Source: Eledone cirrhosa (lineage: Eukaryota). Taken from it: DNA of 64,000 nt. The notes beneath the pieces were generated by a model, which did no database searches, had not been told where the DNA came from, and saw nothing but the letters and a program-made list of their open reading frames with translations. This document shows positions 1 to 55,129 of this stretch, piece after piece. The stretch spans positions 354,082,001 to 354,146,000 of the forward strand of contig OZ024740.1 in NCBI GenBank assembly GCA_964016885.1, given 5' to 3'. The position numbers and the translations under genes were made by a program. How positions within the stretch are numbered: the stretch's first letter is position 1; every line of letters starts with the position of its first letter.

Positions 1-3816
<3,816 letters not shown>

Positions 3817-4016
3817 NNNNNNNNNNNNNNNNNNNNNNNNNNNNNNNNNNNNNNNNNNNNNNNNNNNNNNNNNNNNNNNNNNNNNNNNNNNNNNNNNNNN
3901 NNNNNNNNNNNNNNNNNNNNNNNNNNNNNNNNNNNNNNNNNNNNNNNNNNNNNNNNNNNNNNNNNNNNNNNNNNNNNNNNNNNNNNNNNNNNNNNNNNNN
4001 NNNNNNNNNNNNNNNN
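3817..4016. other. Assembly gap (200 N)
   Basis: Run of N. Confidence 1.
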
Positions 4017-37721: not shown

Positions 37722-38688
37722 ATCATAAAAAAGTTAGTTCAGTTTGGAAAGTCATTCTAAAGATCTGTCTTGATACATCTGGTGGATGATGTCTTACAAT
37801 GTTTGGAATAGACCACATAACTAAACTTTCACTTATCTATTTTGCCAGGTTATTCTGTTAATATGAATAACCAATAAACAAGCAATCATTAAATGTTCTA
37901 ACTGCAATTATGTGGTTGTTACTGATAACTCTAACAATTTTCCAAAAGAATAAACGTTAATAACAATTATAATAATTTGTTACATAAGCATAATGTTATA
38001 AAAGAAATAATGTTATTTCATTAAATATATCACCCTCATTTTTTTTATTAGTATCCTCTTAGCATCACTACAGAAGTTTCCATCAAATTAAATGGGAATC
38101 ATTATCTTGTTTCTGTTGGTATTTCTGGCCTGTGTTCACAAGACTGTTGGTTTATTATTTATACTTATTTTGTGTGTATATATATATATTCAAATAGCTC
38201 TCTACTATACATAGATCACCCTTCTTCCTTTACCTTTTCTACGGAAATACTTAACATATATATACTTAACATATATATATATATGGAGGCACATGGCTTA
38301 GTGGTTAGAGTATTGGCCTTGCAATCGAAAGGTTGCGAGTTCAATTCTCAGACCGGGTGATGTGTTGTGTCCTTGAGCAAGGCACTTTATTTCACATTGC
38401 TCCAGTTTACTCAGCTGTAGATGATAGGGACTGGGGTCCATATCATTCCACTGCAAAGTGGTCGTGGAGGTGCCACGGCACCCAGCACTCACTGTAAATG
38501 AGGTTGGTGTTAGGAAGAGCATCCAGCTGTAGAAATCAAGCTAGAATCAGTTCCCGTCCCACCCTTGCAAGCAGAGAAAAGCAGACGTAAAATGAAAATG
38601 AATATATAAGTAGATTCCAGGTGATTGGGAGGTGACTACAAGAAGATACTCAATATGTTGGTAGAGTATAAGCATCTTTATTTTATAT

Positions 38689-39065
38689 AATAATAATAAT
38701 AAAATTATTGTGTAAAGTGCTCAGGTGCACTACAACTCGTCAAAGGTGCATGTATAGTACATAGAATAATATACAAATGTCAGGGAAGTGAATAGTGTAT
38801 GAGTCATGATATACATGTGTGTATGTGTATGGAGAGGGAACATTAGGTGTAGTGTTGGCAAGTCTCGGGAAGCATGGAGGTTTTAAAGGATGCAGTGTCT
38901 CGACAGCTAACAACTGATGCAGGTAGTTTGTTCCATGCTTCAAAAAGGTTTCCGAAAGTCATGAGATCTGTGCTGTTTTCTGACTTTGTGGGCATGCCCA
39001 CGTGGGTTAGACACATGGAAATCAAAAAGGTACTCAGGGTTGTTGTTGGCAAGATGGTTAATGAT
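38689..39065 (-). mobile_element. CR1-type LINE, short 3' fragment
   Basis: ..RGHAHKVRKQH..EAWNKLPASVVSCRDTASFKTSML, then 3' UTR and (ATT)n tail; same family as 52100-53535. Confidence 0.88.
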
Positions 39066-49427: not shown

Positions 49428-51618
49428 CTAACAAATAAGAAGAGGATAAATGAAGAGGGGGGAAAAAGGTAACAAGATGGTAGGAGAGAGAGATGGGCAA
49501 TGGTGGTAGTTAAATGCTGCTTGTTGGTAAGAGGTAGATAGAGAAATATAAGTGTCATGGTAGGAGAAAGCAAGTATTTGAATAGCAGCTGAGAAGTGTG
49601 ATGGTGAGAGTGGTGGGTAACAAAGAGTCTCATGGGAAGAAAATGAGAATATCAATATGAGTGTGAAATATGTTAAGAATAAATAAAGCCATGTCATTTA
49701 ATACAATTGTCGACTCAAATCACATACACTGTGTGCATAGAAAAAGGAACTAGTATTTGAGGATGGCAAATGCCAAAAATGAAGGAACAGTAAGCAAAAG
49801 TTGGAGTTTATGCTAATATTTTTAGTGAGTAAGAAATGCTAAAAGAAAATCATGAGAATAATGGCAAATTCTGAATCAAATATTAAAATGATTGAGGGAG
49901 CCTCCATGCAACTACTCGATCTGCTAGAAATAGCAACAAAATCTCCCCCAAACCACACTTCATCATAAAAAATGATGAACATTGACCTCTCAAATGGGCC
50001 TGAAGATGTGAGGTGCATCTTACTGACATTTCTGTACTCTACAGGGTTCAATATCAAAATAATAATTCAATACAAGTTCAGTAATATGTAAATATCAAAA
50101 CTGTCATGCTAGCTTTAGAAAATTAATGTAAAATAGAAATATATGAGTAACAACGAAAATGGGCAAATAACTGTATTGTTTCCAAACTAAACTGGCTAAT
50201 TGGAATCCAAATACCACGACTTGACTGAATGATTCTTTTCATATTGATTGCCACAGAGCCCCTCTGGTGTCCTCAATCCCTGAACTTCCGTTTTCCTCTG
50301 CAAAATTGGGAGGAGTGCTTCCCGCCTGAGAATGAAACCCCATGAGGTGGAGTAGCTGATGTAGCAGGTATTGCTAGCTGTTCTCTGTAGCAAAGCTTTC
50401 CCCACCATGTCCACATGGTGCAGCTGAGATATACCACCTAGACAGCGACTGAGTCTGCTTCTCCTTTCCCTTGCTTACTTTCTTTTCTTCTTTCTTCCAG
50501 TTTATCATGTGAAATATTTATGCTAATAAATTTACAAAATGTAGAAAAAAATTTTTTTTTTAAATATGTTTCAGCTGATGGAAGGGAGATCATTGACAAA
50601 AACAGAGATCAATCAGAAGTTTGCAACAAATCAATTTTATCGAGTTTGGACATCAGCTTTCTTGTCACCACAGTGCAGATTGGTTCCTAGGCACAACACC
50701 TTGAACAATGTCATGAGAAGGAGCTTTGACTATGGTGATAGTAAGCACTCAGACTGGATGACCGTTTTCATGCTTAACCCTTATACTATTGTATTTTTGT
50801 GGTTAAGACTTTATCTCACATAATATTGAAGCTATGAGATTTTGTTGCTATTTATTTTGAGAACAATACCTTAACATCAGTATGAGAGACCAGGTTTGAA
50901 CAGAAAGAGGTGAGAGATTTCTGGCCAGATACAGCCGGTTTAAATGCAAAAGGGTTAATGGGAAAGGGCTATATCACTACATACGTTTTTCAGTTCCAAC
51001 CTCATCACTTTTGCCACAAACTAAGGCACCACTGCCTATAATACAGAGATGGGAGATAACCAAAAACTGGGATTTGACCGACCATTTCCTTTTTTACCAG
51101 TTGTCATCGAGACCTCCGGTGTCCACTGTTCCTGAACTGACATTTTCCTCCACAAAATCAGGACAAGTGCATACCACCTGAAGAAGCAGCATCATGTGGA
51201 ATGGCTGATGCAGCTGGTTTGCTGGTTATTTTCTACGGCAATGCTTTCGCTATCTTGTCCACAGGGCACAGCTGAAATATATCACCCAGCCAAGGGTGTA
51301 ATGTTTTTCCCCTTCCCCATTTTTAAATATTTAATATTTCTTTCTCTTCCTCTTTGTTATCTTAATAATTTTTTTACAAAACTACTTTCATGGCAGTATC
51401 GGTAGAGGGTCGGACGCCATGCTTTCCAGCATAGTTACGTCCCTTTACGATCTGAGTTCAAATCCCGCCGAGGTTGACTTTGCCTTTCATCCTTACGGGG
51501 TCGATAAAATAAAGTACCAGTAATGAACTGGATAATTGCTGGCCTTGTGCCTAAAGTAGAAACAATTATTGAATACTTCTTTTCATCAATAAATGTAATC
51601 AATTAAAATATAACTCAC

Positions 51619-51684: not shown

Positions 51685-52099
51685 CTGTAAAGAGATGTAT
51701 ATTTTAATACCAAACAAAATAGAATCATATAGATTAGCAATACAAAACAGAAAATTACCTATCTTTTTATTGTGATTCACAATTCCAAATACATAAATTA
51801 CTGCATTCTACCAAAATCAAAATTAGTATCTTTTTTAAGGAACCAAAATTTGTTGGTATTAATTGGCAACCTAGCAAGAGTTTGAGTAATCCTTGAGTTA
51901 ATGGTGCCACTTTCAGTTAGACAAAGTAAAAGTCTCATCTTACATTCAAGGATCACTGACATCTAAACCTAAGTACTATTATATAATAAACAAGTAGTCA
52001 GATGAGTGTATCTTGTTTATATGTTCCATTTTGGCAAATTTTCTAAGTTTGGATGCCCTTTCCCAATTCTGTCTGAACAACAGTGCTACTCCAGAACAG

Positions 52100-53535
52100 T
52101 GGAATTCCTCTGTTCAAAAAGGGTGACCGCACATCACCTGTGAACTATCGTCCAGTCAGTCTTACTAGTTGCATCGCCAAACTGATGGAATCCTGTGTCA
52201 GAGAAACACTTTGGAACTTCTGGAGCTCTCACAGTCTTATCCGGCCCTCGCAATTTGGATTTATCCCCAACTCCAGCTGCTGTGATCAACTTATAGAGTT
52301 TCTTGAGGACATCACCCAGATCACTGATGGCGGCTCATGGGTGGATGTTGTTTACCTTGACTTTGCGAAGGCCTTCAATTCTGTGCCACACAAAAGGCTT
52401 ATGGCAAAACTCTCTGCAATGGGTGTGAAGGATGATCTTTTTAACTGGTTGAAGTCCTTCATTCTCAGTCGAAGAGAGGTAGTCACGGTTCTGGGACAGC
52501 ATTCCTCACCATATGAGATGTCATCTGGTGTATCACAGGGATCTGTTCTTGGCCCCCTTTTGTTTGTGGCATATATTAATGACATAGATGCCAACTTAAG
52601 GAATGCCACAGTACTAAAGTACGCAGACGACATCAAGCTGTACCTTGAGATAAAAAGGACAGATCCTGAACACTATAGATCTTGCTTGCAGTCTGACCTG
52701 GACGCAGTGCAGCAATGGATCACGGGCTGGCGACTCAGGCTGGTTGTGGACAAGTGCACCACCATGCATTTTGGGAGTAAAAACCCAGCGTCCACATGCT
52801 CCCTCCGCAGCACTGGTATCAGGAGGTCTTCCTGTGAACGTGACCTGGGCATTGTGGTCGGCGGCGATTTGCGTTGGACGAGGCACGTCTCTAAGATTGT
52901 CAAGAGGGCCGAGGGTGTCTAGGCATCGCTCGGCGAGACCTTTGTCGGCTGCTCTCCAGATATCTATTTGAGGCTGTATACAGCTGTGGTGCGACCACAC
53001 TTGGAATTTGCATCACCAGTCTGGAGCCCCTGTCTTGCTCAGGACATTGACCGCCTGGAAACTGTTCAGAGACGTGCAGCCGGACGAGTGCCCTCCATCA
53101 GGCATCTACCATGCTCTGAGCGCCTTGCTTCCCTGGGCGTGGATTCATTGAGGCTCCGACGCCTGGCAACTGACTTGGTAGACACCCACAGAATTGTTGA
53201 CCATGTTGCCAACAACAGCCCTGAGTACCTTTTTGATTTCCATGTGTCTAGCACTCGTGGACATGCCCACAAAGTAGGAAAACGGCACAGTTCCCATGAC
53301 TTTCGGAAACATTTTTTCACGCTCAGAGTTGCTGAAGCGTGGAACAAACTACCTGCATCGGTTGTTAGCTGTCGAGACGCTGCATCCTTTGGGGCCTCCA
53401 TGCTTCCCGAGATCCGCCAACACTACAGCTAACACATACACACATGTACTTCCCTGACATTTGTGTATTATTCTATGTACTATATTGACGAGTTGTAGTG
53501 CACCTGAGCACTTTACACAATAATTTCATTATTAT
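52100..53535 (+). mobile_element. 5'-truncated CR1-clade LINE (RT and C-terminus), A-to-G hypermutated
   Basis: NYRPVSLTS, QFGF, DVVYLDFAKAF, QGSVLGPLLF, YADD, ERDLG, RPHLEF, TRGH, WNKLP. One in-frame stop at 52920-52922; ORF ends at 53432; ATT-rich tail. Lies antisense within an MRPL22 intron. Confidence 0.93.
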
Positions 53536-55129
53536 TTTATAAATGCCAAACAATTCACAGCATGTAATGGGTTCATTTTCTCATGGTGCCACCACTACCA
53601 CATGACAGGGTGGACTGGGTGCTTTTTTTTTTTCATGGTACTAGCACTACCACTTTAGTGTGGACTGGGTGTTTTTGTTTTTTTTAAGGACCAGCACTAC
53701 TATTTACAGTGTGCAAATTGAAAGAAATAAAATATGAAAACAGTAACAAAAACTTCAACTGGAGTTTTTTTATCATATCATGAAAAAAGGTTACACACTG
53801 CTGTGAGCATTAATAGTAAAAGCTGTTTTGCTATTGCCACAAATAGAGATTAAAACCTTTGTAGTGTTAATTATTTCTACACTTTCTAACTAGTATGTTC
53901 CTATACCTTCTAGCATCGACAATCTATTAAGAGAAACCTACAACTGGCTACACAGATCAGCACTGTGAAGAGAGTCTTATGTGGAAATATATAAATGAAT
54001 TAACAATGGTGTAGAACCATTGAAAATGATTTCACTTTCGGTTACAGAAGGGTTACTGTATTAAGAAATCTTAGTGAGTGGGATACATTAAAATTACATT
54101 TTGAAATGGCACCTTCTAGTTGGAACAAGTATTATGCTATGTACTCAGACGCAACTAATTATTTCACTTTTATAAGACCTGTGTCGAGTGATACAGGGAA
54201 CGGGAGAGAAAACAGCAGCACATACAGTGCAGCAACAGTTGAACCTGGATTATCAGTATGTCACTAAGCAATGTATTTTCAAGATTAACTTTCTCCAAAC
54301 CTAACTAAGAAACAGGATTGGCTTCGGTTTTCTTTCATTACTTTTAAGACAAAAAATAAAACTTGGAAAACACATTTGCTGTTTATGATTTTGCCTTGCT
54401 GAAGTAGAACTGAAGCATCTACAAAAATGAGGAAGAAATTAATGAAGAGGATGAAATGCATTAAAATTATATTTAAGCATAACAATCCAACTGAATAATG
54501 TAGAACTGACCTACAGACAATATATTTGAATTAATAAACATGTTTTTAGATATTTTTTGCTAAATTATTGCAAGATATTAAGAATTAAATATACTCTAGT
54601 CCCACTTGTAACTTGATAAAATCAAATCAGTTTTTATGTAATAGATGCAGAAACGGTAGTGTGGTTAAGGAGTTCACTTCATAACCATGTAGTTTCAGGT
54701 TCAGTCTCACTGCGTGGCACCTTGGGAAAGAGTCTGTTAATATAGACTTGGGTTGACAAATGCCTTAATGAGATTTGGTCGATGGAAACTGTGTGGAAGC
54801 CTATCAAGTATATCATCATCATCAACATTTAACGTCTGCTTTCCCTACTAGTAATGGTTGGATGGGCCTACATAAACCAAACCAGTACTGAAGCAAGGCT
54901 ACTGACCTTCCAGACAGGCCGAGGGGTCTGTATCCCTCTTATGTATGGTCATATTGAGTGCAGAGAAGTTGTCGTGTCTTTTGGCACAAACTGAAGGGCC
55001 CTCCTAACCCCTTGTTTGGCAAGCTTTCTATGCTTAGATGCCCTTCCTAACACAAACCAATTTACAGCATGTACTGGGCGCTTTTATTATGTAGATCACC
55101 AGCAGTAGGGATCAGAGCTGCTACTATCA

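Follow-up and report, generated by a model that had tools for sequence, protein, structure and literature searches.

A 5'-truncated LINE copy in the genome of the octopus Eledone cirrhosa carries 48 sense-strand A-to-G (A>G) changes that are all confined to one internal tract. This pattern is most probably the product of a partly double-stranded LINE RNA that was hyperedited by ADAR and then reverse-transcribed into the germline. The copy is located in a 64,000-nucleotide stretch of contig OZ024740.1, the largest contig of a 3.0-Gb genome, hereafter termed the window, and the features discussed below are as follows.

52063..53537, + strand: 5'-truncated copy of a young, likely CR1-like LINE (the match to 29 siblings begins at 52063; RVT_1 E=1e-35)
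52063..52703, + strand: 5' part without editing (0/166 family A read G)
52704..53392, + strand: A>G hypermutated tract (48/191 family A read G; 0/166 T read C)
52920..52922, + strand: premature stop in the ORF2 frame, due to a T>A change adjoining an A>G change (differences at 52921 and 52922)
53393..53537, + strand: 3' end without editing, comprising the ORF2 stop at 53430, the 3' UTR and the ATT tail (0/38 A changed)
38686..39061, - strand: 3' fragment of an older subfamily, not hypermutated, covering the equivalent of 53197-53540 only
53338..53402, + strand: 61-bp LINE unit found in tandem arrays at other genomic loci (period 61; 98% identity between units)

The focal copy represents approximately 1.47 kb of a 5.0-kb element and retains the 3' part of ORF2 (reverse transcriptase and C-terminus), the 3' UTR and a short ATT tail. 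Between 52104 and 52105, the copy lacks 14 nt that the family has (reference positions 43-56), and no other copy examined shares this deletion. There is no clear target-site duplication, the best candidates being 5-7 nt long. Full-length members of the family are about 5.0 kb, and one of them (L139) encodes a 442-aa ORF1 without a Pfam match and a 945-aa ORF2 that matches endonuclease (PF03372/PF14529) and reverse transcriptase (PF00078) families and no other. The 5' ends of the copies are scattered, and the siblings inspected end in ATT repeats; elements of the CR1 clade are commonly 5'-truncated and carry a short-repeat 3' tail instead of poly(A). The named proteins that best match the reverse transcriptase are from birds, whose LINEs are almost all CR1, and from turtles (33-40% identity). 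Judged by these sequence characteristics, the element is likely CR1-like. The family is young, since several siblings match the majority at every fixed column.

Some copies and surroundings have peculiarities of their own. Internal tandem duplications and rearranged pieces are present in several young copies (L155, L171, L035 and L036). Other copies are regularly spaced, at 50-60 kb and 32 kb (G000:C1:143.32-143.77 Mb and 149.86-149.92 Mb), and are probably carried in tandem segmental duplications; L061 and L062 share an identical substitution spectrum. Within the window, several multi-copy families of short interspersed repeats occur (for example 51391-51575 and 50784-50965), and positions 1-4016 have a very low GC content (6-9%), a strong skew and a 200-base gap at 3817-4016, which probably reflects simple repeats at a scaffold join.

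Changes in the focal copy were polarised by the column majority of its 29 best siblings, which were aligned after the best 40 of 4,899 first-look candidates from a family search had been scored. There are 60 differences from this majority, consisting of 48 A>G, 5 C>T, 3 G>A, 3 T>A and 1 A>T, and neither T>C nor A>C occurs. Over the fixed columns, the 29 siblings total 19 A>G and 11 T>C, with no more than four A>G in any one of them. The A>G excess that the initial annotation had noticed is thus borne out and becomes stronger (48 A>G versus 0 T>C). At the background rate of the family, the probability of finding at least 47 changes among 393 adenosines is 7e-54. The changes also have sharp limits, since all of them fall within 52704-53392. 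If the rate of the tract had applied outside it, the absence of any A>G would have a chance of 1e-21 upstream (52063-52703) and 2e-5 downstream (53393-53530). A weaker effect in the 5' part had been suspected, which was the right direction but an understatement, given that A>G is wholly absent there.

At 47 of the changed sites, A is present in 28 or 29 of the 29 siblings. The exception is 53379, where seven siblings have G and the nearest ones have A, and therefore we count 47 changes as secure and one as likely. A new CpG is created by 16 of the 48 changes and none by the other 32, such that the excess persists outside CpG. Among 14 A/G sites reported initially, 10 are true changes, whereas 53196, 53393, 53394 and 53465 are G in the family majority; these four were misjudged because the comparator used at that time (38686-39061) belongs to an older subfamily. 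Given that 53393 and 53394 are family G, the TTTGGGGCC tract (53391-53394) contains two changes and not four. This same tetranucleotide is AAAA in older copies, AAGG in the young subfamily and AAAG in L111, and this subfamily change is itself an A>G in a favoured context.

At the protein level, the changes in the tract touch 44 codons, 34 of them non-synonymously. Four of five ancestral protein states that had been proposed from recall match the sibling L019, and the fifth proved to be ITVSSD rather than IIVSSD. Seven changes in the tract that are not A>G (52722, 52744, 52855, 52921, 52950, 53084 and 53255) are located 1-4 nt from A>G sites. No APOBEC-type cluster of G>A is evident on the sense strand, where such changes account for just 3 of the 60 differences.

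The neighbours of the changed adenosines are far from random. Sorted by 5' neighbour, the changed fraction in the tract is 13/27 after T, 18/51 after A, 16/74 after C and 1/39 after G, and the sparing of A after G is pronounced (Fisher p=6e-5). None of the 14 sites reported initially had been seen to follow G; the depletion holds statistically, yet one of the 48 changes (52726) does follow G. On the 3' side, G is favoured (17/44, p=0.03). ADAR enzymes across metazoans favour 5' U and A and avoid 5' G, according to the available portions of PMC9989829 and PMC5625713, and the order T > A > C >> G in the focal tract agrees with this preference. These same portions differ regarding the preferred 3' neighbour, which is G in PMC9989829 and, for invertebrates, A in PMC5625713. 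The host genome contains 12 matches to the A_deamin profile at four loci. One of these loci has an exon 95% identical to Octopus vulgaris ADAR2; a retrocopy origin of this C6 locus was rejected on the basis of an intron.

Further copies with the same signature were sought with probes to three windows of 33-35 bases that required G at two or more of the favoured A sites. The first probe (52800-52832) matched the focal copy alone, so no descendants or duplicates of the edited copy were recovered. The second matched L102, L104 and L105 in addition to the focal copy, and the third matched L102, L179 and L180. When each is polarised against the nine copies closest to it, the counts of A>G and T>C are 15 and 0 in L102, 12 and 0 in L104, and 18 and 1 in L179; after removal of the sites forced by the probes, 8, 10 and 14 A>G, respectively, are left. 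These three copies, spread over two further chromosomes, extend to other loci the signature first seen in the focal copy. They differ from each other in flanks, 5' ends and subfamily states, and therefore represent separate events. A shared origin was considered specifically for L102 and L179 and rejected, given that their flanks and truncation points differ and that four of their six common changes are probe-forced. Several other candidates were not counted: L105, a probe match in a tandem array, is not hypermutated, L180 has just three clustered A>G in 300 nt, and the milder candidates L197, L213, L081, L079, L051 and L060 have scattered, partly shared variants.

Tract lengths in the four hypermutated copies are about 690 nt (focal), 310, 160 and 65-130 nt. 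Taken together, these copies favour a 3' purine (48/162 versus 30/182, p=0.004). The depletion of 5' G in the three additional copies, pooled and with probe-forced sites removed, is not significant (4/32 versus 27/125, p=0.18); in L179, 3/8 of the G-preceded adenosines are changed.

Hypermutated copies are rare. None of 148 other loci, some of which may be duplicates and about one third of which were chosen by likeness to the focal copy, shows an excess of A>G over T>C at p<0.01. An A-free anchor recovered 919 copies, and none of the approximately 70 examined among the first 100 listed is hypermutated. At the third probed site, 2 of 1,909 matching copies are hypermutated; because just three windows were probed, this rate of about 0.1% is a lower bound. 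On the sense strand of the 148 ordinary copies, A>G is mildly more frequent than T>C (208/55,026 versus 138/52,649), an excess that consists partly of shared variants and has no 5'-G depletion.

LINEs insert through reverse transcription of their own sense RNA, and therefore an edit in that RNA would be seen as a sense-strand A>G in the new copy. The route that we consider most probable would begin with a transcript of an active CR1-like LINE that is double-stranded over part of its length (approximately 690 nt for the focal copy). The second strand would most likely be an antisense RNA transcribed from a different copy, or else an inverted copy included in a read-through transcript. Judging from the signature, ADAR would have converted about one quarter of the adenosines in this duplex to inosine. 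ORF2 protein would then have engaged the RNA via its unedited 3' end and begun reverse transcription at a genomic nick. Inosine would have been copied as G, leaving a truncated copy in germline DNA; the insertion and its G alleles are observed, and the path leading to them is our reconstruction. Inosine is mostly read as G, as stated in the accessible text of PMC10877575. The same event would have occurred independently at least three more times in the family, with its own tract each time. On this view, RNA edits escape into genomic DNA on rare occasions, and the copies do not demonstrate a defence.

The partner strand was sought at several levels. No inverted partner covering the focal tract is present in the window or in 40 kb downstream, nor does one flank L037, a full-length copy with the same haplotype, over about 8 kb upstream or 17 kb downstream. 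A source element was sought among 20 long copies, 19 of which could be aligned (L260 gave no alignment), and none of them has the focal haplotype. An intramolecular fold as the ADAR substrate is unsupported, given that the family RNA by itself is not unusually structured (z=-1.6) and that edited adenosines are not paired more often in the predicted fold. The differing tract lengths fit different partner RNAs better than one fixed fold. Inverted pairs of family members, 0.4-9 kb apart, do exist elsewhere, both head-to-head (L069, L075 and L144) and tail-to-tail (L145/L146 and L147), and of the four pairs of neighbours no more than 13 kb apart in the first 100 anchor matches listed, three are inverted. 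Such pairs are possible sources of fold-back RNA.

Another candidate partner is suggested by the 61-bp unit in the 3' coding end of the LINE, which has given rise to a LINE-derived minisatellite (L112 1495-3035 at G000:C1:1.78 Mb, and also L035, L105, L230 and L257). Its motif has 18,377 matches, and among those listed most are in arrays. In L104, 11 of 18 adenosines in 53336-53402 are changed, compared with 1/90 upstream and 0/39 downstream. Given that the probe that recovered L104 lies inside the unit, the overlap is informative only insofar as both borders match. Edits so near the ends of a duplex are not typical of ADAR. With these caveats in mind, antisense RNA of the 61-bp arrays is a candidate duplex partner for L104. 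A broader proposal, in which ADAR to LINE to genome is a recurring germline mutational route and antisense debris of the family, such as the 61-bp arrays, guides which stretch is edited, is tentative, and we lean somewhat against it.

Several other explanations for the tract deserve consideration. The changes could have been made after insertion, either because a reverse-transcribed edited transcript converted a patch of the resident copy or because a DNA:RNA hybrid at the locus served as a substrate for ADAR. Sharp borders such as those of the tract also fit conversion patches. However, the haplotype of the focal copy, which is also present in L037, L073 and L149, runs across both borders, and therefore a single template fits better than a later patch. 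Editing through host transcripts further predicts hypermutation on either LINE strand, whereas two mirror T>C probes gave seven matches at six loci and no T>C-hypermutated copy. This strand tally is 3 to 0 when the focal copy is set aside (p=0.125 if the probes have equal power, not significant alone), and to that extent leaves room for a post-insertion origin. The neighbouring SINE (51391-51575) is not hypermutated, having just 2 A>G among 4 differences, which also argues against an agent acting on the locus. On balance, we judge changes after insertion to be unlikely.

An error-prone polymerase, either the LINE reverse transcriptase working from an imbalanced dNTP pool or an enzyme resembling pol eta, would place C opposite template A without any inosine, and this seems more improbable still. 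The preference for 5' A or T over C (p=0.02) does resemble the WA motif favoured by pol eta, but this motif does not predict that C-preceded adenosines are changed far more often than G-preceded ones (16/74 versus 1/39, p=0.006). Pol eta would also yield many A>T and A>C changes, whereas 48 of the 49 changes at A go to G, and a biased pool leaves unexplained the 640 clean bases copied after the tract. The closeness of the seven other changes to A>G sites (p=8e-4, post hoc) could point to low-fidelity synthesis, but it weakens under another polarisation (p=0.047) and is not repeated in the other hypermutated copies. Clusters of inosine can themselves lower the fidelity of reverse transcription, but the accessible part of PMC10877575 places this effect at the inosine itself. 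Likewise, the mild A>G excess of ordinary copies (p=8e-4) might be taken as the trace of a general polymerase bias, but it is not accompanied by the 5'-G depletion of the focal tract.

An artefact of assembly or polishing with edited RNA reads was addressed with three genome-like sequencing runs from one sample, which is possibly the assembly's own and for which the library type is not on record. The runs contain 35-43% of the sampled words of the focal copy, and because unedited words shared with the family, together with the flank, account for about 40%, this share proves nothing by itself. Small shares of the words are present in the further runs X1-X16. The run contigs are more telling, given that those at 53052-53119 (depth 7.3) and 53093-53190 (16.6 and 17.7) carry the focal G alleles and no other letters. 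Depth is 7-10 in the unique flanks, 7-18 at the G alleles and at both junctions, and 1e4-1e5 for the family, which looks like the profile of whole-genome DNA. Contigs cross the 3' junction and also the 5' junction, where they extend 30 bases inside, one short of the rule for bridging. No empty-site joint is found among the contigs listed for the three runs, which, along with the junction contigs, suggests that the insertion is germline and possibly homozygous. With G alleles at approximately flank depth, and the same pattern at four separate loci, an artefact is very improbable. It should be noted that no listed contig spans the whole tract, that a RAD run from another sample has no coverage of the locus or its flanks, and that the three runs, which may share the assembly's sample, do not amount to a second individual.

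Finally, normal divergence between subfamilies, decay of CpG sites in the comparator or drift biased towards GC explains the four discarded sites of the initial 14 and might be suspected for the 16 changes that create CpG, but the sibling alignment rules out subfamily and CpG explanations for 47 of the 48 sites, T>C changes are absent, and a probe asking for any 2 of 5 focal G alleles matched the focal copy alone, so that these causes can be dismissed with near certainty.

The proposal that ADAR-hyperedited RNA had been written into genomic DNA was originally accompanied by three outcomes that would count against it, namely a family that carries G, a strand-symmetric T>C excess, and DNA reads with A. 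The siblings carry A at the changed sites, there is no T>C counterpart, and contigs of the genome-like runs carry the G alleles, and thus the proposal has survived all three. An additional suggestion, that ADAR serves to restrict LINEs in this manner, is unsupported, because hypermutated copies are rare, the edited RNAs were inserted nonetheless, and the focal copy is truncated and would be dead regardless of its edits.

Clustered A>G changes in retroelements have been ascribed before to ADAR editing of RNA prior to reverse transcription. ADAR-linked A-to-G hypermutation was described for the avian retroviruses RAV-1 (Felder 1994) and avian leukosis virus (Hajjar and Linial 1995), as summarised in the available portion of PMC8586724. 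Those are infectious elements in infected cells, as represented there, whereas the present case involves an endogenous non-LTR element in an invertebrate germline at several independent loci.

A second parallel is provided by the APOBEC 'DNA editing' footprints of endogenous retroelements, which, in the accessible text of PMC4866542 and PMC2873906, are likewise strand-biased, clustered and context-dependent marks of a host deaminase that were fixed by retrotransposition. These differ in being G>A changes from cytosine deamination of cDNA in vertebrate LTR elements, rather than A>G changes in an octopus LINE. Within the portion of PMC4866542 available to us, a screen of LTR elements for such footprints found other mismatch types to be very rare and 19 invertebrate genomes to be at noise level. 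The focal copy is an A>G counterpart of the APOBEC footprints and not a member of that class.

Hyper-edited repeat RNAs of metazoans also exhibit dense A>G clusters with 5'-G depletion. The available parts of the studies concerned (PMC5625713, PMC9989829 and PMC9068888) place octopus among the most hyper-edited species and give sense-antisense pairing as a source of double-stranded RNA. In those reports, as far as the same parts extend, RNA is altered against an unchanged genome, whereas here the pattern is in the DNA.

Human L1 offers a further comparison, given that ADAR there also encounters LINE RNA before it is inserted. Both ADAR1 and ADAR2 bound L1 RNA in assays with human cells, in which editing was undetected (PMC5224506 and PMC8677026, in the text accessible), and restriction of L1 by these enzymes is largely editing-independent (PMC5224506, PMC8677026 and PMC8535693, likewise). 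According to these portions, about half of the L1 RNA was checked without editing being detected, and the authors left rare editing open. By analogy, the octopus copies look like the rare L1-editing events that these authors allowed for. In a literature search that excluded supplements and most subscription journals, no publication came up that describes ADAR-type A>G tracts in LINE copies of the germline, and the accessible portions of PMC5974252, PMC4189041 and bioRxiv 10.64898/2026.06.26.734816 contain nothing of this kind.

RNA editing is usually regarded as non-heritable. The copies described herein suggest a specific way in which A-to-I edits could pass into germline DNA, and they come from the group of animals in which editing is most extensive. 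The accessible part of PMC9068888 suggests that defence against transposable elements may be a major function of cephalopod editing that has yet to be explored. The low rate of hypermutated copies argues that hypermutation is not the main check on this family. These copies are genomic scars from which assemblies alone can reveal how frequently, in which lineages and with what sequence preference LINE RNA is edited prior to insertion, and whether edited RNAs are depleted among insertions. If the recurring, guided route proposed above is true, then such scars would preserve, in a form that can be dated, the past activity and specificity of ADAR in the germline, and edited copies could seed new subfamily variants.
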